From an uncultured Gammaproteobacteria bacterium (GTDB lineage: Bacteria > Patescibacteriota > Microgenomatia > UBA12405), in NCBI GenBank assembly GCA_964448705.1, contig CAYUZS010000002.1, positions 1,729 to 47,576 of the forward strand: a DNA stretch of 45,848 nt, given 5' to 3'. Numbering within the stretch: the first letter of the stretch is position 1; the number at the start of each line of letters is the position of its first letter. The notes under the pieces are model-generated. The model was not told where the DNA came from and ran no database searches. It saw only the letters and a list, made by a program, of their open reading frames with translations. A program made the translations under genes and the position numbers. Of this stretch, positions 2,585 to 44,757 are shown in pieces.

Positions 2585-3163
2585 ATGAAAATACTAGAGA
2601 ATATTACTGTTGAGGAAATGGTGGCTGTTTTTTTAAGCGGTGAACTTAATTCACCAAGGTGGGGAGAAAAAATAAAAGCTATTCTGACAAAAAATAAGAT
2701 AGATGAGCGGATAATAACTAACCCGGATATTAAAAATAAAGATGAAAATTCTAAAAGAGCTTTGGTCCTAGGAGAATCAAGGGGTTATGGCCGAAAAGAC
2801 GGTTTGTTCGATGATTTGGAAGAAGTGACGGGATGGAAAAGGGTTTTGTTGGAATCTGATGATTTTAAAAACATTAGGTATATTGATTATGATTACTGGA
2901 ACGAATTGTCGGGAAAAACAAGATTAGTGACCGAAGGGGCTAAGAGTGTTGAAGAAGGACGGGAATTTTTTAATGTTAGTAACCAACAATATTGGCAGGT
3001 TAGCGAATTCGTAAAAAAGGGCGGCAGATTTCCCAGTTTAATTTTGATATCAGATAAAACGGGAAAAATGAAATTACTTGAAGGTCACGTAAGACTGACT
3101 GGTTATCTGCTAAATAATAAAGAACCCGAACCTTTAGAAGTGATTGTTGGTTTTAAAAACTAA
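2585..3163 (+). CDS. hypothetical protein
   Basis: 192-aa soluble ORF with no motif I recognise. Confidence 0.4.
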   Translation: MKILENITVEEMVAVFLSGELNSPRWGEKIKAILTKNKIDERIITNPDIKNKDENSKRALVLGESRGYGRKDGLFDDLEEVTGWKRVLLESDDFKNIRYIDYDYWNELSGKTRLVTEGAKSVEEGREFFNVSNQQYWQVSEFVKKGGRFPSLILISDKTGKMKLLEGHVRLTGYLLNNKEPEPLEVIVGFKN

Positions 3164-4516: not shown

Positions 4517-4522
4517 GGACTA

Positions 4523-4528
4523 ATTATA
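4523..4528 (-). promoter_or_regulatory. -10 hexamer TATAAT exactly 6 nt upstream of the GT-C start codon (leaderless geometry)
   Basis: Minus strand reads TATAAT-TAGTCC-ATG. Only a weak -35 (TTCAAA/TTTCAA) lies 16-17 nt upstream. Confidence 0.4.
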
Positions 4529-4607
4529 TGGTTTTTAAAATAAGTTTGAAAAGGGATTTTAAAAATAGATGTGGAATAAAAATATTATTTTGATAGAATT
4601 TTTTCAA

Positions 4608-17751: not shown

Positions 17752-18337
17752 GGCTGATTAATGTTAATCCAAGAACAAAGAAAAGAATACTGATTAATTG
17801 GGCGATTTTGATTTCACTGACGGCCCAGGTATCAGAACGAAAAAATTCAAAAATAAACCGAATAAGACCGTAACCAATAAAATAATGAGCTGTTGGAGTT
17901 TTGGATTTTTTAAGAAGAAAGAAAAGAATTAAATTAAATGAGGCTTCCAGCCACCATAAAGGAATTTCCTGATTAACAAAATTGCCCAGACGGCCAATAG
18001 CCTGACATAAAGGTAAAACCGGAGAGATGGAATCAAGTAATGATAAAAAAGAATAACCTCCTAAGCGGCAGAAAATAAAAATGAACAGGAGAGATCCTAG
18101 GATACCACCATAGATTCCGAGTCCCCCGTTCCAGGTTTGGGGTATGAGCCATAGATTTTGGGAATAAAACGACCATTGGTCGATAACATGATAGAGTCGG
18201 GCGCCAATTATGGCGGAGAAAATAGTACCAAAAACAAATAAATTAAGCTGAGAAGAGGAAATGTGTTTTTGGTGTTTTAGAAAATATTCGATACCAATGA
18301 CAAAAGAAATACCTATAATTAGGCCGTAAAGATGCAT
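17714..18337 (-). CDS. lgt: prolipoprotein diacylglyceryl transferase (short form)
   Basis: HLYGLIIGISF, GGLGIYGGILG and GRLGNFVNQE motifs. Start trimmed to ATG 18337, because the upstream 21 codons of the ORF-track ORF are a tRNA-like sequence. The 3' end overlaps the ABC gene start by 38 nt. Confidence 0.75.
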   Translation of the reverse strand: MHLYGLIIGISFVIGIEYFLKHQKHISSSQLNLFVFGTIFSAIIGARLYHVIDQWSFYSQNLWLIPQTWNGGLGIYGGILGSLLFIFIFCRLGGYSFLSLLDSISPVLPLCQAIGRLGNFVNQEIPLWWLEASFNLILFFLLKKSKTPTAHYFIGYGLIRFIFEFFRSDTWAVSEIKIAQLISILFFVLGLTLISHEKVKIIQKDFK

Positions 18338-18339
18338 GC

Positions 18340-18412
18340 GGTGGGCCCTGCGAGGATCGGACTCGCGACCAATCCCGATAAATCGGGACTGTTCTACCAA
18401 TCGAACTTCAGG
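18340..18412 (-). pseudogene. tRNA-Lys-like pseudo-tRNA: intact T arm and 3' acceptor strand, palindromic 'anticodon arm', degenerate 5' acceptor strand
   Basis: 18340..18373 is identical (34/34) to the tRNA-Lys 3' part at 18657..18690. A D-arm-like GTTC-GATTGGTA-GAAC is present. The 5' strand AATCCCT cannot pair with AGGGCCC. The 5' third is the end of the GIY-YIG ORF. Confidence 0.6.
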
Positions 18413-18654
18413 GATTGTGAATTAATAACCTTTTCAATTATTTTACGACTTTTAAGTTTTTTTAGGTATTTTTCCATTTTGTTGGCAGAGGTGATATCCG
18501 GAAATTCTTGAAAAAATTCAAGTTTGATAGGAAGAAATTTTTTGGTAAAAGTGCTTTTGCCGGAGGAATGATCAATTATTCGTTGACTGATATTGGTTGT
18601 ACTGCCGATATAAAACTTATCGTTGCTGAGTCTTAGGATATATACCCAGGCCAT
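18394..18654 (-). CDS. stand-alone GIY-YIG nuclease domain protein (86 aa)
   Basis: WVYIL...FYIGSTTNISQRIIDH...KLEFFQEF...: GIY/YIG, Arg and Glu motifs of the GIY-YIG fold. The ATG lies 1 nt after the CCA of tRNA-Lys, and the stop TAG lies in the D-loop-like GATTGGTAG of the pseudo-tRNA. Confidence 0.75.
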   Translation of the reverse strand: MAWVYILRLSNDKFYIGSTTNISQRIIDHSSGKSTFTKKFLPIKLEFFQEFPDITSANKMEKYLKKLKSRKIIEKVINSQSLKFDW

Positions 18655-18655
18655 T

Positions 18656-18730
18656 TGGTGGGCCCTGCGAGGATCGGACTCGCGACCAATTGCTTAAAAG
18701 GCAACTGCTCTACCACTGAGCTAAGGACCC
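18656..18730 (-). tRNA. tRNA-Lys (anticodon TTT), CCA encoded, unusual T loop TCCGATC
   Basis: GGGTCCT/AGGGCCC acceptor, D arm GCTC-AGTGGTA-GAGC, anticodon arm GTTGC-CTTTTAA-GCAAT, T arm GCGAG-TCCGATC-CTCGC, ACCA. Confidence 0.85.
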
Positions 18731-18982
18731 AAATTGTTAAATAAGCGATGTTAAGGTAATCGCGACCAATCCCGATAAATCGGGACTGCTCTACCACTGA
18801 GCTAAGGACCCAAATTGTTAAATAAGCGATGTTAAGGTAATCGCGACCAATCCCGATAAATCGGGACTGCTCTACCACTGAGCTAAGGACCCAAATTGTT
18901 AAATAAGCGATGTTAAGGTAATCGCGACCAATCCCGATAAATCGGGACTGCTCTACCACTGAGCTAAGGACCCAAATTGTTA
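18731..18982 (-). repeat. three perfect 81-bp tandem units, each carrying a truncated tRNA-Lys 5' fragment with a palindromic replacement of the anticodon arm
   Basis: Unit 5' ends are at 18973, 18892 and 18811 (minus sense). The units are identical base for base. Each has GGGTCCTTAGCTCAGTGGTAGAGCAG, then TCCCGATTTATCGGGA, then TTGGTCGCGA, then a 29-nt spacer. Confidence 0.9.
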
Positions 18983-24816: not shown

Positions 24817-24823
24817 AAAAAGA

Positions 24824-25834
24824 TTATACCATTTTGTATTTTTCCAGTTCTTTCTCCCCTAACCTTTCCTGAGGAGGGATGAAGCGTAAATGGAGAAAAT
24901 TATAAAATTTTTCTTCAGACGAAAATTGATTGATTTTTTCTGTTTTTTGGTCTTTTATTCCATATTCAGAAAGTGAATAACCTAGTTTAAGTGCATGACG
25001 ACGAAGAAGAATATTATGTTGTCGGGAACCGGTAAAATGCTGAAGCAAGGCACCGAAAGATATTGGAGGCTTAACCATCAGATCGACATGGACATCGTGA
25101 AGCAAACGAATTGAGGCTTTATCCTGACCGCGGATGATGGTTTGAACAGAATCCGGATAATTGAGAAAATAATCTAAAATAGGCTGGGAATTATCTGAGG
25201 CGGCGGCGATATCAATATCGCCGATTGTAGCTGACTGCCGCCGTAAAGAACCTAAAGGAATAAATTTAATTGAAGGAAATTGTTTTTGAAGATACGAAAT
25301 TATCTTTGTAGATAATTTTTCGGCCTCTTTTAACGGCATACGGCGATTCCGGCCCAGGAATGAAAGAGTGTTGTCGAGAATTAAAGCTTCTGACTTTTCT
25401 CCAAGGGTGGGAATGGTGCGGATTTTGCCCTTTTGGCAATAGCTGATTAATTGGTCAAGTGCTTTTTCGGGAGATTGGGAAAATTTTAGATTTTGGGTAA
25501 GTTTATAAGCAATAAGGGGTCCAATGCCGTTAATTTTGGTAAAGGTAAAAACAGCAGGATGAAGTGAATTTAAAATTTTTTGAGTCGGAGGATAAATTTC
25601 TTGGTTTTTGAATAAATAGTCAATTTTTTTGAGGATGGCCGGGCCGATATTGGGTACTTCATCGATCAGTTTTGGATCTTTTTGCCAAAGTTCATATAGA
25701 GATTTAGGATAGGTAAGAATGGTGTCGGCAGCGTTTTGATAGGCAATAATCCGAAAACGATTTTTCTTTTTGATTTCATAGGCAGTAGCGATGTTGGTAA
25801 GAAATTCAGAAACATAAGCATTTGTATAGTTCAC
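24824..25834 (-). CDS. family X DNA polymerase (Pol beta-like core, no PHP domain)
   Basis: 336 aa. HhH motifs (GIGPLIAYKL), nucleotidyltransferase motif GSLRRQSATIGDIDIAAAS. GTG start. Confidence 0.7.
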   Translation of the reverse strand: MNYTNAYVSEFLTNIATAYEIKKKNRFRIIAYQNAADTILTYPKSLYELWQKDPKLIDEVPNIGPAILKKIDYLFKNQEIYPPTQKILNSLHPAVFTFTKINGIGPLIAYKLTQNLKFSQSPEKALDQLISYCQKGKIRTIPTLGEKSEALILDNTLSFLGRNRRMPLKEAEKLSTKIISYLQKQFPSIKFIPLGSLRRQSATIGDIDIAAASDNSQPILDYFLNYPDSVQTIIRGQDKASIRLLHDVHVDLMVKPPISFGALLQHFTGSRQHNILLRRHALKLGYSLSEYGIKDQKTEKINQFSSEEKFYNFLHLRFIPPQERLGEKELEKYKMV

Positions 25835-25882
25835 ATCTAGATTATAATACTGTTTTTTGGTATATTACCAAAGCCGTTGTAT

Positions 25883-26003: not shown

Positions 26004-26028
26004 AAAATCCGCTATTGGCGGATTTTTT
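26004..26028 (+). terminator. intrinsic terminator AAATCCGC-TATTG-GCGGATTT plus T run
   Basis: Read directly, 48 nt downstream of tRNA-Asp. Preceded by a GC-rich 10-bp hairpin at 25964-25988. Confidence 0.6.
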
Positions 26029-34589: not shown

Positions 34590-37121
34590 ATGTTAAAAAT
34601 GTTACAAAAATTATTATTAACATTTTTATTTGTTTTCTTTCTGATTTTACCAAAAATAACGCTTGCTTCTGAATATCTGTATAATGATGAATTCAATAAC
34701 TTTGACTATGAAAAGTGGTCATTTAACCAAAATGAAGGTTCTTTTGAAATTGATAATGGAATAATTACACTCGATAGTCATCTTGGTTCTTTTCCTGTCA
34801 TGTATAGTAAATTTCAAAACGTATTCACTTCATCTGGAAAAAACACTCTTGATGTACGTTTTAAATATAATAGCTATGGTTCTATGGGTGATGGAATAAG
34901 TATTGGTTATACAGGAGATACTATTTATCCGTATTATCAATTTTCTCTTTGGAGAGATTTATGGCCAGTGTTTTCATATAATGATTTTAATAAGGCAAAG
35001 TATTCTTACTGTACAAAATTTGAACCATGGAAGGATATTGACGATAGAGTAAACGTCACATTAAACAATAATGATAATGATTGGCATGTTTTAACAATTA
35101 ATAAAATAAATTCTTGGTATCAGATATTTATTGATAAAGACACGAACCCCACTCCTATATATAGTGCTTATGGTAATCAGTGTGTACCCCAAAATATAAT
35201 AATTGGAAATCCACTTTCAGGTGGTAGTACTAATTGGAACTCAATATCAATAGATTATGTCAGATCTTACGATACGGATAATCCACCACCAACTCCAACC
35301 GTCATTGAAACCCCTACTCCAACTCCAACTCCAACTTTGACACCAACATCAACTCCTACTCCAATACCAACTTTAACACCGACGATGACACCAACATCAA
35401 CTCCCACACCTACTCCAACCCTAACACCAACCCCAAAAAGAAAAATCATTATTATTCCCGGTCTTGGAGCAAGTTGGAACTCGGAGGCAATGGTTTTTAA
35501 TACCGAGGTAGAAGATGACCAATGGAAAATGACTCCGTTTGTAAATAATTATCAGCTTTTAATCGACACATTGAAATATAATGGATTGGTCGAAGGACAG
35601 GATTTTTATGTTTGGAATTATGACTGGAGAAAACCTATAAGCCAAATAGTTGGTAGACTGGACAATTTTATAAACAAAAATATTTTATCCGGTGAGAAGG
35701 TGGTCTTAATCGGTCATAGTTTGGGCGGAGTAACTGCCCGATTGTGGTCACAAAATCACCTATCTGATGATCGTTTAGATAAAGTGTTTAGTTTGGGAGG
35801 TCCACAGCTTGGAGCGATTGATGCTTATGATGTTTGGAATGGTGTTCAAATTCCTCAACGGGATTTGGTTTCCAACGCTGCCATAAATTTACTTCTAGCA
35901 TTACAAAGCCAAAATCAATTAAGCAGGCTGGAAACGTTAAGAAGCTATGCTCCGGTGCTAAAAGATTTAATGCCGACATTTGATTTTGTAAAGAAAAACG
36001 GAGTGATCGTGAATATAAACAATTTGAAAAGTAAGAACGATTATTTGATTAATGAAAACAAAAATATTTCCAGCTTAAACGATAATTATTTACCTATAGT
36101 AGGAGTCGGAGTTTCAACGAAGGAATATATAAATTTGGGAAAACAAAGCATTTTTAGTAGATTAACCGGTTTATGGCCGGACGGCGATCCGGTCGGTTAT
36201 ATTCGGGGCAATGGTGATGGAACGGTGATATATAAAAGTGCGGCATTCGGAAAAACACCGTTTGAGATTAACTCTAACCATGGTGAAATAGTTGATAAAT
36301 CGATAAGTGAAATTGTCAGAGAAATCAACTTAAATAATTACGGTGAGAGTAACTTTAAGGAGGCGGATTTAAGCGGGAAAATGTTATTTTTTATCGGTTC
36401 TCCGGCATATATGTCGGCTGACTGCGGATTGGGGGTGACAAAAGTCTCTGATGAGTTGGGTTTTATAGAAATGAGTGCTGAAAATAAACCGTGTAATGTA
36501 AAAGTGACGGCAATTGGTAATGGCGGTACTTATCATTTGGTAACCGGAAAAATCGGTGAAGAAAAAAGTTGGCAATATTTTGAAACAGAAATCAATTCAG
36601 GTGAAAGCGATGTGTTAATTTTGGATGGAAAAACAGGAGAACCTATAGACAAGAAAAATGATGACTATTGGTATAAATTGTTGATCAGAGAAATAAATCA
36701 GTTATTAAAAAAATATCCGAATAACAATCATTTGAAAACGGCTAAAGAGTCGGCGATCAGAAAAAATTTGTTAATGACAATAAATAGAGTTTTTGAATTT
36801 AGAAGAGAAAACAAGGAAATAGTGATTACAAACAGAATGATTGATTATTTTAAAGAATTGTTGATTAGTAAATATTCACGGGTAGATAGACCAAGTACAA
36901 AATATGTGTGGAATACGGTTAGCGGCAGCAGAAAAAAGATAGACACTTGGATGGAGATGTATTGGAAGCTCGGTTGGAAACCGTCGAGAATGATGATGGT
37001 TGATTATCAAAAGATTGGAGATCTTGGAGAAGAGGGAAACGAAGCTTGGAATTCAGGAAATAATGCCAGCGCTTATGCGAATTCACTATTAATGTCCTAT
37101 CTTATGGAGAGGTTTTGGTAG
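34590..37121 (+). CDS. secreted multidomain alpha/beta-hydrolase, LCAT/lipase-like, with an N-terminal lectin-like domain and a Pro/Thr linker
   Basis: 843 aa. Signal peptide; beta-rich N-domain of about 200 aa; PT linker (aa 232-282); IIIPGLGASWN, YVWNYDWRKPI (LCAT-family YDWR) and nucleophile elbow GHSLGG (35712-35729). Confidence 0.6.
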   Translation: MLKMLQKLLLTFLFVFFLILPKITLASEYLYNDEFNNFDYEKWSFNQNEGSFEIDNGIITLDSHLGSFPVMYSKFQNVFTSSGKNTLDVRFKYNSYGSMGDGISIGYTGDTIYPYYQFSLWRDLWPVFSYNDFNKAKYSYCTKFEPWKDIDDRVNVTLNNNDNDWHVLTINKINSWYQIFIDKDTNPTPIYSAYGNQCVPQNIIIGNPLSGGSTNWNSISIDYVRSYDTDNPPPTPTVIETPTPTPTPTLTPTSTPTPIPTLTPTMTPTSTPTPTPTLTPTPKRKIIIIPGLGASWNSEAMVFNTEVEDDQWKMTPFVNNYQLLIDTLKYNGLVEGQDFYVWNYDWRKPISQIVGRLDNFINKNILSGEKVVLIGHSLGGVTARLWSQNHLSDDRLDKVFSLGGPQLGAIDAYDVWNGVQIPQRDLVSNAAINLLLALQSQNQLSRLETLRSYAPVLKDLMPTFDFVKKNGVIVNINNLKSKNDYLINENKNISSLNDNYLPIVGVGVSTKEYINLGKQSIFSRLTGLWPDGDPVGYIRGNGDGTVIYKSAAFGKTPFEINSNHGEIVDKSISEIVREINLNNYGESNFKEADLSGKMLFFIGSPAYMSADCGLGVTKVSDELGFIEMSAENKPCNVKVTAIGNGGTYHLVTGKIGEEKSWQYFETEINSGESDVLILDGKTGEPIDKKNDDYWYKLLIREINQLLKKYPNNNHLKTAKESAIRKNLLMTINRVFEFRRENKEIVITNRMIDYFKELLISKYSRVDRPSTKYVWNTVSGSRKKIDTWMEMYWKLGWKPSRMMMVDYQKIGDLGEEGNEAWNSGNNASAYANSLLMSYLMERFW
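35283..35435 (+). repeat. low-complexity Pro/Thr-coding repeat (interdomain linker)
   Basis: Imperfect ACNCCN reiterations encoding PTPTVIETPTPTPTPTLTPTSTPTPIPTLTPTMTPTSTPTPTPTLTPTP. Confidence 0.9.
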
Positions 37122-40346: not shown

Positions 40347-40355
40347 TAATCAATT

Positions 40356-43145
40356 CTAGCCTATTTTTTCTATCCTGAGTTCGTCTGATTTCTCTATTGA
40401 ATCTGCTAAAGTTTTACTCATAATTTCTTTTTCCAGCGATTCAGGCCAGCTTGGAGCCAGAATTTTGATATGGTCTTTAACTTCCAGTCCGGCTTCACGA
40501 CGAAGAACCTGAACACTCCGAACGAAATCCCGGTATTCACCTTCAGCGATCAATTCAGGAGTTAAAACAGTGTCTAGAACAATCTGGGGAATATTAGTGC
40601 CAGTGGTGTCGATGATGACAGACTTAATATTTGTTTCCGAGGCGATGACGGCTATTAACTCATCGTTTAATTTGGCGCTGGTTTTAATGGTGACTTTAGC
40701 CAGAGGTTGACGGATTTTAAGACCTTCTTTTTGTCTTTCAGCATGAATTAACTGACACAATTGTCTGACTTTAGACATTTGTTTTTCAAGATCGATGTTG
40801 ATCAACTTGACGTCTGATACCGGCCAATTTTGAGTGTGAACAGTAACATTGGAGCCGGTCATTTCATTTCCGGATAAGTTTTGGAAAAGCATTTCACTGT
40901 AAAAAGGAATAAAAGGCGATAAGGTGACGACCAATTGGTGAAAAATATAATTTAACAATCCAAAATTATCGATGCGGTCCCGATTTCGTCGAATATACCA
41001 AGTGGATAAATCAGAAACAAACTCCTCCAGAGATTTAGTGGCGGCAGCAGTGCTATATTTTTCCACGGTATTAGTGACTATTTTTATAGTGGAGTGAAGA
41101 CGGGAAATGATCCATTGGTCGAGAATATCAGTGGCGGAAGAAGGATCGAAGTTTTCGGTCGGCTGCCAGTTTTCTAAGTTGGCATGCTGAGTGAAAAAGC
41201 GATAAGAATTCCATAGAATTAACAAAAACTCTCTTTTAACCTGATCGGCAATGTTAAATCCAAAATTAACATTAGCGGAAGGTTTTTGCTGGCAATACAT
41301 CCAGCGCATAGCATCGGCACCCATTTTAGTGACGGCATCATCATAAGGAATACCATTTTTTTTGGTTTTACTCATTCTTTCACCTTTTTCATCACGAACT
41401 TCACCATGGGTAACGACAACTTTGTAGGGAGGTACGTCTTCAAAGGTAACACTGAAGAACAGCATGGAATAAAACCAGAGTCTTACCTGCTCAACCATTT
41501 CCAACACCATATCGGCAGGGAACCATTTTTGCCAGTAAGATTTATCTTCTAAATATTTCAGAGTAGAAAAAGGAACAACTCCGGCGTCCAACCAAACATC
41601 ACCGACATCGGTAATCCGGGAAATATCATGACCGCAGTGAGGACATTTTATTTTGATGTCGTCAATCCAGGGACGATGCAGCGAAGGAAGTTTATCAATA
41701 AGTTCCGGGTTAACGGCTTTTTCTTTTAATTCTTCCAAACTGCCGATGACCGTCAATTCGCCACAATCACATTGATAAAAAGGAAGAGCCAAACCATAAA
41801 AACGTTTACGGTTAATCATCCAATCTTCCATGTTATCCAACCAATTTTGCATCCGACGGCCGGCATATTTTGGATGCCAATTAACTTTTTTGGCGGCTTC
41901 TTTTAACAAAGGCCGGATTTCATCTGATTTAATAAACCAAGAGTCTTCGAGACGGAAAAGACATTTGGTTTTACAACGCCAACAATGCGGATAGCGATGA
42001 GTTATAGATTCGGTTTTGAACAGAGAGCCAATACTTTTTAAATAATCAAATACCATTGGGGCAACATCATGAGCATATTTCCCACTTAATTCGCCGTAGC
42101 CTTCAAGAAAATGACCACTTTCATCAAGCGGAGCAAGAGCATCGGCGTTTAGTTTTTTACCAAGTTCAAAATCTTCCTGACCACAGCCAGGGGCGATATG
42201 AACAACTCCGGAACCGTCGGTGTCGGAAACCATTTCCCAATCGGTGAGATAGTGTTTGACATTTTTCTGAGCGGGAATATCGTAGAGGGATTCGTATTCC
42301 AGATTTAATAAACTTTTCGGATCGATGATTTGGTAGTCTGTCAGACCAAGACGATCGGCGGCATTTTTACCCAAATATACTTTTTGGCCGTCGAGATTGG
42401 CACAGACATATTCAAAATTAGTATTGATAGCTAATAAAACATTGGCGGAAAGAGTCCAAGGAGTAGTTGTCCAAGCTAAAACATATTCCTGCCGATTTTT
42501 CAGTTTAAATTTTAAGAAAACTGAAGTATCCGTATCTTCCTGATAACCATCGGCCTCTTCATGTTGAGAAAGACCTGTTTCGCATCGGGGACACCAGGTG
42601 GTGGCGCTTTTCTTTTTAATCAGCCAACCTTTTTGATGAACGATTTGCAAAAAATGCCAAATATACAGATTATTGGTGCGGGAATTGGTGTAATACGAAT
42701 TTTCCCAATCCATAAACATTCCTAAACGTTTAGATTGTTCGGTTTGGATTTGAGAATATTTATCAATCCTGGCAAGACAAGTTTTGGTGAAATTTTCCAA
42801 TCCAAAATTTTGAATGTCTTTTTTAGAATTAAAACCAGCCTCTTTTTCCACCTCGACTTCTACCCACAAACCCTGGCAATCGAAACCGTTTTGAAATCTT
42901 TGGGCGAAACCTTGGGCATTTTTGAAACGCTGAAATAAATCTTTGAGTGTTCGGCCGCGGGCATGATGAACGCCCATGGGATTGTTGGCAGTAATAGGAC
43001 CGTCAATAAAAGAAAAAGTTTGAGAAGATTCGTCGTTTCGGTGGAGATATTGGGATACTATGTCCTGACTGTACCACCAATTTAAGATTTGAGTTTCTAA
43101 CTCCGGAAAGTTCGGGTTTTGAGGAAGATCTTTGAAGAATGCCAT
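40356..43145 (-). CDS. ileS: isoleucine--tRNA ligase
   Basis: 929 aa. HIGH-type motif PMGVHHARG, editing-domain TTPWTL, WCPRCETGLS, KMSKS variant RMSKTKKNG, zinc-finger-like CPHCGH. Confidence 0.85.
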   Translation of the reverse strand: MAFFKDLPQNPNFPELETQILNWWYSQDIVSQYLHRNDESSQTFSFIDGPITANNPMGVHHARGRTLKDLFQRFKNAQGFAQRFQNGFDCQGLWVEVEVEKEAGFNSKKDIQNFGLENFTKTCLARIDKYSQIQTEQSKRLGMFMDWENSYYTNSRTNNLYIWHFLQIVHQKGWLIKKKSATTWCPRCETGLSQHEEADGYQEDTDTSVFLKFKLKNRQEYVLAWTTTPWTLSANVLLAINTNFEYVCANLDGQKVYLGKNAADRLGLTDYQIIDPKSLLNLEYESLYDIPAQKNVKHYLTDWEMVSDTDGSGVVHIAPGCGQEDFELGKKLNADALAPLDESGHFLEGYGELSGKYAHDVAPMVFDYLKSIGSLFKTESITHRYPHCWRCKTKCLFRLEDSWFIKSDEIRPLLKEAAKKVNWHPKYAGRRMQNWLDNMEDWMINRKRFYGLALPFYQCDCGELTVIGSLEELKEKAVNPELIDKLPSLHRPWIDDIKIKCPHCGHDISRITDVGDVWLDAGVVPFSTLKYLEDKSYWQKWFPADMVLEMVEQVRLWFYSMLFFSVTFEDVPPYKVVVTHGEVRDEKGERMSKTKKNGIPYDDAVTKMGADAMRWMYCQQKPSANVNFGFNIADQVKREFLLILWNSYRFFTQHANLENWQPTENFDPSSATDILDQWIISRLHSTIKIVTNTVEKYSTAAATKSLEEFVSDLSTWYIRRNRDRIDNFGLLNYIFHQLVVTLSPFIPFYSEMLFQNLSGNEMTGSNVTVHTQNWPVSDVKLINIDLEKQMSKVRQLCQLIHAERQKEGLKIRQPLAKVTIKTSAKLNDELIAVIASETNIKSVIIDTTGTNIPQIVLDTVLTPELIAEGEYRDFVRSVQVLRREAGLEVKDHIKILAPSWPESLEKEIMSKTLADSIEKSDELRIEKIG

Positions 43146-43160
43146 AGTGTATTTTAATAT

Positions 43161-43184
43161 AAAAAATCCCGCAGGTGCGGGATT
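43161..43184 (-). terminator. intrinsic terminator AATCCCGC-ACCT-GCGGGATT plus T run, 15 nt upstream of the ileS ATG
   Basis: Read directly on the minus strand. It lies between a -10 element (43264-43272) and ileS. Confidence 0.6.
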
Positions 43185-43220
43185 GATGTAGCTGCGTCTC
43201 CGAAATGAATCGGATAGCAG

Positions 43221-43253
43221 CTAGATAATAATTATTTTTTGGGTAGTGCCCAT
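43221..43253 (-). promoter_or_regulatory. candidate ileS leader peptide ORF MGTTQKIIII* (four consecutive Ile codons ATA ATT ATT ATC)
   Basis: ATG 43253..43251, TAG 43223..43221. The stop codon is the first 3 nt of hairpin TAGCTGC...GCAGCTA (43189-43223). Confidence 0.4.
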
Positions 43254-43263
43254 AAGATGATAA

Positions 43264-43272
43264 ATTATAGCA
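43264..43272 (-). promoter_or_regulatory. extended -10 TGC-TATAAT, 10 nt upstream of the leader ATG
   Basis: Abuts the stop codon of the upstream ORF. Same architecture as 43594..43602. Confidence 0.4.
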
Positions 43273-43539
43273 TTAACTGGTTACATTTCTTATTTCAACT
43301 TCACCACCGCCAAAATATTTGAGTTTCATTGAATTATCTCCAGTTATGATGAATGCTTCGGTAACAGGATTGTATGCAATTAGATTTGAACTTAGGTTAA
43401 CTGGCATCGTGTCTCGGATTAAAACTTCGGTGTGACGGGTGATAGTGTCAGTGATGATTAAATTAAATTTGGATAATTCAACCCGGTCGTAACATATTTT
43501 TGTAAAAAACTTACCATCAATCAAGATTTCAGTGGTCAT
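43273..43539 (-). CDS. hypothetical 88-aa protein between ftsZ and ileS
   Basis: Beta-rich soluble ORF. Start trimmed from TTG 43563 to ATG 43539. No SD. The ATG overlaps the TGA of a 15-codon upstream ORF (ATGA). Confidence 0.4.
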   Translation of the reverse strand: MTTEILIDGKFFTKICYDRVELSKFNLIITDTITRHTEVLIRDTMPVNLSSNLIAYNPVTEAFIITGDNSMKLKYFGGGEVEIRNVTS

Positions 43540-43602
43540 AAATGGGAAGTACGACACAAACAAAATTTTTGGTTAGTGCCCATAGATAGAAGGATTATAA
43601 CA
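43536..43602 (-). promoter_or_regulatory. extended -10 TGT-TATAAT plus 10 nt plus upstream ORF MGTNQKFCLCRTSHL*, a paralogue of the ileS leader element
   Basis: -10 at 43602..43594. ATG 43583; TGA 43538..43536. 43565-43587 nearly matches 43235-43258. Confidence 0.35.
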
Positions 43603-44757
43603 TTATTTATTTTTTCTTAAAAAAGAAGGAATGTCGAATTCGTCCACAATATCAACACCGGCGGGAATTTCTTTATCGTTTAAAACTGCCATTTCAGGCG
43701 GTTGAGGACTGACCGGAGAGGAATTAGCAACAGGAGGAGAAATCTGAGTTTGTAACGGACGTGAGGGTTTTTTGATATTTTGATAAAGTCTTTGGCGGCT
43801 GGAGTCAAAACCGGTGGCGATAACACTGATCTTAATTTTATCGGAAAAAGTTTTATCGATTGTGGCCCCAAAAATTACATTTGCGTCGGGAGCTGATAAT
43901 TCAGTGATAGTTTTGGCAGCCTCTTCGATTTCGGCCATTGTCAAATCCGGACCACCAGTGATGTTAATCAAAACTCCTCTGGCACCATCAATAGCGACTT
44001 CGACTAACGGGGAATCAATAGCAGCTTCAACCGCTCTTCTGGCTTTTTCTTCACCTTCAGCTTCACCGACACCCATGAGAGCCGAACCGGCGTTACTCAT
44101 AACAGATTTGATATCGGCAAAATCGAGATTAATAAGACCGGGAACAGTAATCAGATCGGCAATGGCTTTTGTGCCTTTATTTAAAACTGAATCAGCAATT
44201 TTAAAAGCCTCAAGAAGAGTGGCTTTATCGTTGACGACTTCAAGTACTTTTTGGTTGGGAATTACAATGAGAGTGTCAACATTTTCTTTGAGCTGAGAAA
44301 CACCTTCCTCAGCATTGGTCATGCGTCTGGTGCCTTCAAAAAGAAAAGGTTTGGTGACGACAGCTATCGTCAGGGCACCTATTTCTTTTTTGGCTATTTC
44401 GGCGATTATCGGAGCAGCACCGGTACAAGTTCCTCCACCCATACCTCCGGTAATAAAAATCATGTCAGTTCCCTCCAGAGCTTCACGAATACGATCGTGT
44501 GATTCTTTGGCGGCTTCGGCGCCGATTTGAGGATTACCTCCGGCACCAAGACCTTTGGTTAATTTTTCTCCGATTTGAATTTTAATAGGAGCCAGGGAAT
44601 TTAAAAGTGCCTGAGAATCGGTATTAACAGCGATAAAATCGACACCCTGAATATCTTCTTCAGAAATCATGGAGTTGATGGCATTGTTTCCGCCGCCACC
44701 AATACCCACAACTTTGATTCGGGCAAACTGACCGGTAAGGTTTTTTATTAATCCCAT
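43603..44757 (-). CDS. ftsZ: cell division protein FtsZ
   Basis: 384 aa. GIGGGGNNA, tubulin signature [28 protein letters not shown]-terminal DIPSFLRK tail. Confidence 0.95.

Follow-up and report, generated by a model that had tools for sequence, protein, structure and literature searches.

The gene pair pheST is the precedent for an aminoacyl-tRNA synthetase (aaRS) under leader-peptide attenuation, and T-boxes upstream of ileS are well known (PMC1262725). Switches between T-box and leader peptide at one and the same aaRS gene have been documented for hisS (PMC2965389). Leaderless polycysteine small open reading frames (sORFs) of mycobacteria regulate the gene that follows them, using stalled ribosomes to gauge the supply of the amino acid (Canestrari et al., bioRxiv 10.1101/834739), and at pyrBI and pyrE a ribosome near the terminator hairpin blocks termination without antiterminator RNA (Li et al., PMC4824070). 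The element analysed here lies directly upstream of ileS, the gene of isoleucyl-tRNA synthetase (IleRS), in a 45,848-nt stretch of contig CAYUZS010000002.1, hereafter called the window. The closest matches of this IleRS, at 80% identity, are in Candidatus Shapirobacteria genomes of the candidate phyla radiation (CPR, Patescibacteria). The element combines a predicted leaderless mini-gene of ten codons with a hairpin (P1) and an intrinsic terminator, and the balance of the evidence favours a role in which it senses the supply of Ile-tRNA(Ile) and regulates ileS in cis. No earlier description of an amino-acid-sensing leader peptide in the CPR, or of a leader peptide for ileS, was found in searches of open-access text, in which the papers retrieved ascribe the regulation of ileS to T-boxes, and the element would be the first of either kind to be described.

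A conserved isoleucine leader upstream of ileS

The initial annotation had recognised an extended -10 box, an open reading frame (ORF) ending in four Ile codons, a compound hairpin and a terminator in front of ileS, and had proposed a folding prediction and a comparison of related ileS upstream regions. When the sequence was read all of these features were found on the minus strand where they had been placed (Table 1). The predicted fold of 43140-43262 consisted of exactly the P1 and terminator hairpins, with a minimum free energy of -35.9 kcal/mol (z = -5.6) and none of 200 shuffled sequences as stable. The T-run ends 15 nt before the ileS ATG (43145), and in this fold the 15 nt and the start codon are unpaired. 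In a consensus scan the leader terminator ranked best within 38-45.8 kb, and since a terminator of the same form (AAATCCGC...GCGGATTTTTT) lies behind a tRNA gene at 26005-26025, it represents a genuine terminator type in this genome.

The family compared comprised 51 non-identical Shapirobacteria-like copies. Of 80 ileS loci taken from GTDB species genomes 23 had the arrangement of the window. The family includes 24 genome-derived copies, gathered without pattern selection, and 27 further loci from metagenomes. The 23 loci share a layout in which a TATAAT-like box is followed after 6-12 nt by ATG or GTG, an ORF ending in Ile-Ile-Ile-X-stop, P1, a linker and a strong terminator. The N-terminal residues of the leader are unconserved, as seen in the peptides MFSLNKIIIK, MFLSKIIIT, MRKTSSQKIIIT, MGQTKTIIII, MTYQFIIIIN, MKTCKLTYDIII and MKKLMAKTEELVKIIIKN, while the Ile core is retained together with P1 and the terminator. 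Isoleucine stood at -3 and at -2 before the stop in 50 of the 51 copies each and at -4 in 41 of 51, with any residue at -1. Every one of the 24 genome-derived copies had at least two successive Ile codons (three to four in 18 copies, two in the other 6). Among these copies the Ile codons were ATT (48), ATA (13) and ATC (12), with synonymous swaps between members. ATG never substituted for a core Ile codon, and the rare non-Ile residues were Thr, Lys, Ser, Pro, Asp or Tyr.

Both P1, with its outer and inner helix, and the terminator covaried in the alignment of the 24 copies (0.33 versus 0.13 for shuffles, with 0 of 500 shuffles reaching the value), and controls in which the register was slid gave at most 0.14. 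In the terminator 6 of 10 pairs were altered on both sides across the family, at a mean free energy of -10.7 kcal/mol; for P1, which spans 17-36 nt, the family mean was -14.7 kcal/mol. The first pair of P1 falls at nucleotide 1-5 of the stop codon (median nucleotide 3). Members with a TAA stop and without the X codon have a P1 beginning 1-2 nt past the stop, and in both layouts P1 starts about 5 nt beyond the last core Ile codon. Between P1 and the terminator lies a linker of 0-6 nt (median 5, standard deviation 1.2). In P1 and the linker it is position that is conserved, not sequence. A covariance model built from the 24 copies (R1) matched only ileS-upstream copies in 544 kb.

Relatives that keep the hairpin and lack an Ile-rich ORF had been named in the initial annotation as evidence that would speak against a leader. 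Among the close relatives inspected none kept P1 and the terminator without the Ile ORF; one locus, L029, has the -10 box and a weak hairpin and no ORF. At about 2930-3000 of that locus a TGCTATAAT box, the weak hairpin and a T-run precede ileS with neither a start codon nor an Ile run, and the stretch looks like a decayed remnant of the element. In two other loci (L021 and L076) a second terminator-like hairpin (AATCCGCC-N3-GGCGGA with a short T-run) was observed between the leader terminator and the promoter nearest to ileS, perhaps as a terminator in tandem, perhaps as what is left of a duplication.

For the reading frame of the mini-ORF, the best TATAAT match upstream of the stop was picked blind to start codons, and the first ATG or GTG at least 4 nt downstream was scored. 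In 45 of 45 elements this start codon shared the reading frame of the Ile run and the stop codon (binomial p ~3e-22, an optimistic value for related sequences), and a TATAAT-like box stood at the distance given above in 45 of the 51 members. The mini-ORF varies from 7 to 18 codons across the family, so its frame has been maintained through many indels. Together these results support translation of the mini-ORF, with the Ile codons as its specifically conserved part. The short spacing between box and start implies a leaderless or nearly leaderless leader mRNA, and the 10 nt in the window predict a 5′ untranslated region of about 3-4 nt. Few genes of the window have a Shine-Dalgarno (SD) sequence, and in many a TAnAAT box precedes the ATG by about 6 nt, which points to leaderless mRNAs, with promoters for individual genes, as the rule in this genome. 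The rodA box, TAGAAT, includes the stop codon of ileS.

Linkage of the element to ileS was evident from a metagenome scan with a pattern of two Ile codons, TAG and the terminator arms, blind to ileS, promoter, start codon and P1. The scan returned 76 loci, of which 31 were of the mini-ORF type and 45 were C-termini of long ORFs. ileS was found downstream on the same strand, at 16-162 nt, in 29 of the 31 mini-ORF-type hits and in 0 of the 45 others (Fisher p = 5.6e-19). The two exceptions were L092, which is truncated and starts MSKFKDIPQ like IleRS, and L128, a false positive inside a long ORF. The upstream neighbour was ftsZ in just 30 of 53 loci, and ileS was the constant downstream neighbour. 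In a subgroup with ...SKIIIIK peptides the element precedes an IleRS only 36% identical to that of the window over its full length, and in L084 and L111 the FtsZ encoded upstream is 77% identical to that of the window; the contrast between the two identities indicates that the synthetase gene was exchanged in place and the leader kept. The second IleRS type (L111, 1673-4480) carries a canonical PHHGH. A scan of 1.12 Mb for modules of mini-ORF and terminator gave runs only of Ile, in 45 of 46 modules, the 46th being the ileS element of L018. Modules for other amino acids were not found in the 1.12 Mb, a sample with few other aaRS genes.

Table 1. Coordinates of the leader and of other features of the window
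Feature	Coordinates	Strand	Remarks
Leader -10 box with TG extension, TGCTATAAT	43264-43272	minus	read from sequence
Spacer, 10 nt, between TGCTATAAT and mini-ORF ATG		minus	
Mini-ORF, 10 codons, MGTTQKIIII and stop	43221-43253	minus	ATG GGC ACT ACC CAA AAA ATA ATT ATT ATC TAG
Four consecutive Ile codons, presumed sensor	43224-43235	minus	ATA ATT ATT ATC
Compound hairpin P1, outer TAGCTGC/GCAGCTA, inner TCCGA/TCGGA	43189-43223	minus	5′ strand starts with the TAG stop
Linker CATC, P1 to terminator	43185-43188	minus	
Intrinsic terminator AATCCCGC-ACCT-GCGGGATT	43161-43184	minus	stem 43184-43165, then TTTT to 43161
Proximal -10-like box TAAAAT, 5 nt before ileS ATG	43151-43156	minus	TAAAAT-ACACT-ATG, 43156-43143
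ileS, isoleucyl-tRNA synthetase, 929 aa	40356-43145	minus	Pfam tRNA-synt_1, Anticodon_1, DUF5915
Lineage-specific 88-aa ORF	43273-43539	minus	no Pfam match
Truncated upstream ORF, MGTNQKFCLCRTSHL and stop	43536-43583	minus	TGA overlaps the ATG of the 88-aa ORF (ATGA)
Upstream duplicate (78% identical) of ftsZ stop, promoter and first six leader codons	43566-43605	minus	repeat family D15
Successive genes ftsA, ftsZ, 88-aa ORF, ileS, rodA/ftsW, L21, L27, parB	ftsZ 43603-44757; 88-aa ORF and ileS as above	minus	
Examples of a -10 box near the ATG	1586-1600, 4517-4531, 24817-24831, 25835-25850, 40347-40361		

How the leader might act on ileS

Between the terminator and ileS the window has a second -10-like box, and the string TTAAAATAC..ATG is present also in relatives without the element. 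A box of this kind, 4-9 nt ahead of the ileS start codon, was found in 34 of 44 loci with the element (13 of 20 from genomes, 21 of 24 from metagenomes) and in 12 of the 18 loci lacking it; the background frequency was 0.07. In most lineages ileS probably has a leaderless promoter of its own, and the leader would supply further transcripts conditionally. In most lineages transcription is accordingly likely to start also beyond the terminator, which complicates control by read-through and does not exclude it. In four lineages with the element (L028, L034, L025 and L101) only 2-16 nt separate the end of the T-run from the ileS ATG, with no -10 box between, so that the essential ileS must there be transcribed only through the terminator. 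The ileS genes of these read-through-only lineages have no SD, and internal SD-less initiation must therefore work in the clade. GC-rich repeats resembling miniature inverted-repeat transposable elements (MITEs) (...CCAGCGAGCGCAAGCGAGTCGG... and ...GTCATTTCGAGCGAAGCCGAGAAATCTC...) were observed between the leader terminator and ileS in L004, L014, L124 and L142 and in L032, L118 and L157. A second -10 box lies behind these repeats, and their insertion indicates that the distance from terminator to gene is evolutionarily flexible.

Classical attenuators need an antiterminator that captures the 5′ arm of the terminator upon ribosome stalling. Such pairing was tested by folding the RNA as it is before the terminator 3′ arm is made, with a ribosome mask through 9-10 nt past the A-site codon, and by reading out the energy gained when the terminator 5′ arm may pair upstream. 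With a stalled ribosome the E. coli controls gave -11.0 kcal/mol for trpL (sequence verified) and -13.7 and -10.0 kcal/mol for thrL, and with the ribosome at the stop 0. The result for the family is the first of several points that weigh against a sensor acting through this terminator. The mean of the 51 members was -1.0 kcal/mol with the ribosome stalled and -1.7 kcal/mol with the ribosome at the stop, weaker than in shuffled sequences (-1.6 and -2.2 kcal/mol), and the antiterminator was significant in 0 of 51 elements, the most negative value being -4.6 kcal/mol. As no competing pairing exists, the terminator should by its sequence fold in every state. Measured linearly, a ribosome stalled on the last Ile codon would be 27-47 nt away from the stem of the terminator, farther than the roughly 10-15 nt expected of a ribosome-proximity attenuator of the pyrBI/pyrE type, and no experimental precedent was found for a steric effect relayed through a folded hairpin. 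Moreover, the proximal box is kept with or without the element, so ileS may not depend on read-through, and ileS has no SD, which makes its translation from a leadered read-through transcript an assumption. The sample itself calls for caution, as 27 of the 51 copies were retrieved by a pattern fixing two Ile codons, TAG and the terminator arms, and as the phylogenetic relatedness of the sequences makes the p-values overstate their independence.

Masking the whole 5′ half of P1 changed nothing except in L035 (-9.7 kcal/mol, significant), and pairing of the 3′ strand of P1 with the 5′ arm of the terminator was rejected as an antiterminator against the trpL and thrL positive controls. The initial annotation had seen no convincing antiterminator by eye, which was correct and extends to the whole family; its suggestion of a pheST- or ilv-type attenuation logic found no support in a computation that recovers the trpL and thrL pairings. 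Two further readouts were discarded as uninformative. One was the equilibrium probability of the terminator under ribosome masks, which even for trpL changed little (0.97 versus 0.83). The other was the energy gap that separates the most stable terminator-free structure, which at 12.0 and 19.4 kcal/mol for trpL and thrL was no smaller than in the family (11.2 kcal/mol). Three other ways of passing the terminator were rejected as well, frameshifting and stop-codon read-through as general mechanisms. Frameshift translation across it at hungry Ile codons would require frames that are not consistently open, +1 or -1, over P1 and the terminator. For stop-codon read-through into ileS the window is in frame, with TAG alone intervening, and the frame relation is unconserved (63, 167, 86, 169 nt etc.). 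For ribosome hopping of the gene-60 kind a matching Ile/Thr codon in the linker was seen by eye in some members and was absent in L012, L013 and L006.

With no antiterminator, a mechanism based on geometry is proposed. RNA polymerase would start at TGCTATAAT, and a 70S ribosome would load on an AUG at or near the 5′ end. With ample charged tRNA-Ile the ribosome would pass Ile-Ile-Ile-X to the TAG, unwind the 5′ strand of P1 and leave, after which the terminator would fold, the transcript would end at about 90 nt, and ileS would be made from the proximal promoter only. With scarce charged tRNA-Ile the ribosome would park on the Ile codons and more polymerases would read through into ileS. That a stall raises read-through, and the way in which it does so, we infer only. 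A distance of about +12 from the P-site codon corresponds to the entrance of the mRNA tunnel in ribosome footprints. While the last core Ile codon occupies the A site, P1 would stand intact at the tunnel mouth, its first pair at about +12 from the P-site codon, and two codons further the ribosome would have to unwind the outer stem. The single-stranded tether that links the last Ile codon to the stem of the terminator is about 10 nt long when P1 is folded and about 40 nt when it is unfolded. Folded P1 could thus serve as a collapsed spacer that brings the terminator stem close enough for the bulky stalled ribosome to hinder its completion, and P1 may double as a pause hairpin, giving slow leaderless initiation time. 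An attenuator of this kind, without antiterminator RNA, with folded P1 as collapsible spacer and perhaps pause signal, and replacing the ileS T-box in the CPR, is put forward tentatively, as one possibility that we would not call likely. It has the right regulatory sign, and it accounts for a geometry that is fixed, a P1 that is free in sequence and the absence of competing pairing.

The terminator could instead be leaky and constitutive, with a ribosome stalled within about 30 nt of the 5′ end shielding read-through ileS RNA from decay that depends on the 5′ end, much like the erm-type 'induced stability' of B. subtilis. The mini-ORF is always short and sits at or near the predicted 5′ end, which a stalled ribosome would cover; no alternative RNA structure would be required, matching the antiterminator null, and some lineages must express ileS through the terminator in any case. 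Neither the start of P1 in the stop codon and the linker of about 5 nt nor the retention of so strong a terminator would be explained, however, and we consider shielding unlikely. Slightly less likely still is that the module acts on the proximal ileS promoter, with polymerases from the strong leader promoter that end on the TAAAAT box and there occlude the box or recycle onto it, and with release by the ribosome from a pause at P1 setting the flux. This would suit the window and a second subgroup, in which the T-run abuts the box (T-run, 1-4 nt, TAAAAT, N5-7, ATG), as well as the conservation of the box independently of the element and a terminator that looks constitutive by sequence. Yet in eight loci (L004, L014, L021, L032, L071, L118, L124 and L142) the terminator lies 24-160 nt off the ileS promoter with unrelated repeats between, and four lineages have no proximal box, so adjacency is not the general mechanism; in simple versions of pausing and occlusion, Ile starvation would also lower ileS, a response in the wrong direction.

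A classical mechanism of the trp/his/pheST type, in which the stall frees the P1 3′ strand to pair with the terminator 5′ arm, fits the order of the parts (cognate-codon ORF, stop-adjacent hairpin, short linker and terminator, as in a 1:2 plus 3:4 layout) and a possible 5-bp CGCAG/CTGCG pairing in the window. It is nevertheless nearly refuted in silico and very improbable, with -1.0 to -1.9 kcal/mol in the 51 members against the control values above, significance in L035 alone and solely with the whole P1 5′ half masked, and a 5-bp pairing that is unconserved in relatives. As hard to credit is a self-contained mini-gene or small RNA, or an insulator terminator of ftsZ, with no role for ileS and an Ile run due to AT-rich codon bias: it agrees with the element's own promoter and terminator, the AT-rich genome and the 17 close relatives without the element, but not with an element that is exclusive to ileS in the metagenome scan and persists through neighbour change and ileS replacement, with Ile fixed by codon position while other residues drift, with the exclusive Ile runs among the modules of the 1.12 Mb scan, or with the T-box that sister lineages carry at this position.

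T-boxes and the history of the locus

The occurrence of the Ile leader was compared with that of T-boxes over a range of IleRS divergence. At an N-terminal IleRS identity of at least 66% to the window, 21 loci had the Ile leader, 17 had nothing and 1 was T-box-like. At 56-66% identity (Dojkabacteria and similar) 2 had the Ile leader, 8 had nothing and 23 were T-box-like. The two distributions are close to mutually exclusive, and in the Dojkabacteria- and Chloroflexi-type lineages the T-box-like matches occupy the same position, all of them directly upstream of ileS on the same strand. They score 32-51 bits (E 3e-8 to 2e-3), and since no T-box in the distant loci reaches the Rfam gathering score of 93 and the matches hold only at an E-value threshold, they are termed T-box-like. 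No T-box was found in the loci of Shapirobacteria type. In the window the T-box covariance model RF00230 with its conserved AGGGUGGNACCGCG gave no match at 42900-43800 even at E <=10, and other Rfam matches there at the same threshold were noise only. At gathering score Rfam returned tRNAs alone over the whole window, and no leader or T-box family. By this comparison the Ile leader appears to take the place of the ileS T-box in Shapirobacteria-like CPR bacteria.

In the window the leader start is duplicated, at 43236-43275 and 43566-43605, 330 nt apart (two copies in a motif search against 0.03 expected). This 40-nt direct repeat flanks an insert of about 290 nt with the orphan 88-aa ORF, whose exact protein is confined to four contigs of the same species. 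L008 and L148 have no 88-aa ORF, and there the ftsZ stop abuts the promoter of an intact leader. Because the upstream copy in the window follows the ftsZ stop, the site of the intact leader in L008 and L148, the 88-aa ORF is by this comparison a lineage-specific insertion that split the ancestral leader ORF, the break having been repaired via the 40-nt duplication. The truncated upstream ORF of Table 1 arises from the upstream copy, and the new gene seems to have taken over both the promoter and the start of the ancestral leader. The initial annotation had considered that the hairpin might act only as the terminator of the 88-aa gene. With the gene a lineage-specific insertion, and the element kept in relatives without it, this role as a mere terminator is ruled out.

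Some other observations were made in the window and in related loci. Residues ~52-66 of the window IleRS (42960-43000) read PMGVHHARG in place of the class I HxGH (HIGH) signature. Another conserved mini-ORF, for the peptide MGITFE or MGITLE, lies on the strand opposite to ileS and a few kb off in L032 (6139-6235, minus), L118 (3990-4086, minus) and L157 (2974-3070, minus), where it is likewise accompanied by a -10 box, hairpin and terminator. Tandem 81-nt repeats and repeat families of 37-39 nt (D2, D3 and D14) at 18335-18982 surround a tRNA gene at 18659-18730 and hold tRNA-like segments (TCGCGACCAATCCCGATAAATCGGGAC), which may be partial tRNA duplications or mark an integration hotspot. At 35274-35453 a repeat with a 12-nt period encodes a Pro/Thr-rich linker in an 843-aa LCAT/alpha-beta-hydrolase protein (34590-37121).

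Comparison with known leader systems

The reading of the element as a sensor of Ile-tRNA that acts in cis on ileS is well supported, and its occurrence is so far limited to Shapirobacteria-like CPR bacteria. It would show that in very small genomes with few SD sites and mostly leaderless mRNAs a promoter, ten codons and two hairpins, about 110 nt in all, are enough to make a sensor. The locus also offers two natural experiments on leader evolution, the exchange of T-box and leader peptide and the retention of the leader across an ileS swap to a gene for a 36%-identical synthetase. The missing antiterminator implies either a new link between ribosome position and termination or an incomplete textbook picture, and the collapsible spacer, if true, would be a new coupling principle for leader-peptide control.

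Judged by its parts list the element would be a leader-peptide attenuator, and its membership of the trp/pheST type appears to fail for want of an antiterminator. With E. coli pheST (pheM) and the trp, his, thr and ilv leaders it shares cognate tandem codons, a hairpin and a terminator upstream of the gene, and the same logic is expected, in which low charged tRNA leads to a stall and to more read-through. In contrast to these leaders it is probably leaderless, not SD-led, its control codons are the last two to four sense codons, and its stop lies within the first hairpin. A second promoter usually stands between terminator and gene, the gene is ileS, and the host belongs to the CPR.

The ileS T-box of Firmicutes and Actinobacteria, with its divergent copies in Dojkabacteria and Chloroflexi, has the same gene, position and presumed signal, the charging of tRNA-Ile, and T-boxes of the terminator type have the same output as the window leader. 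The leader, however, has neither T-box sequence nor T-box fold and would sense through a translating ribosome instead of direct tRNA binding. The mycobacterial polycysteine sORFs are leaderless short ORFs with a run of codons for one amino acid, as the window leader is predicted to be, but there the stall opens a duplex sequestering the ribosome-binding site, so that control is translational and involves no terminator, whereas the window leader has a strong intrinsic terminator and an ileS without SD whose start codon is free of structure. With pyrBI and pyrE the steric model of the window leader shares the principle of ribosome proximity. Their ORF reaches or enters the terminator, while the stop in the window family lies 27-47 nt upstream of it, and proximity would be gained only via folded P1.

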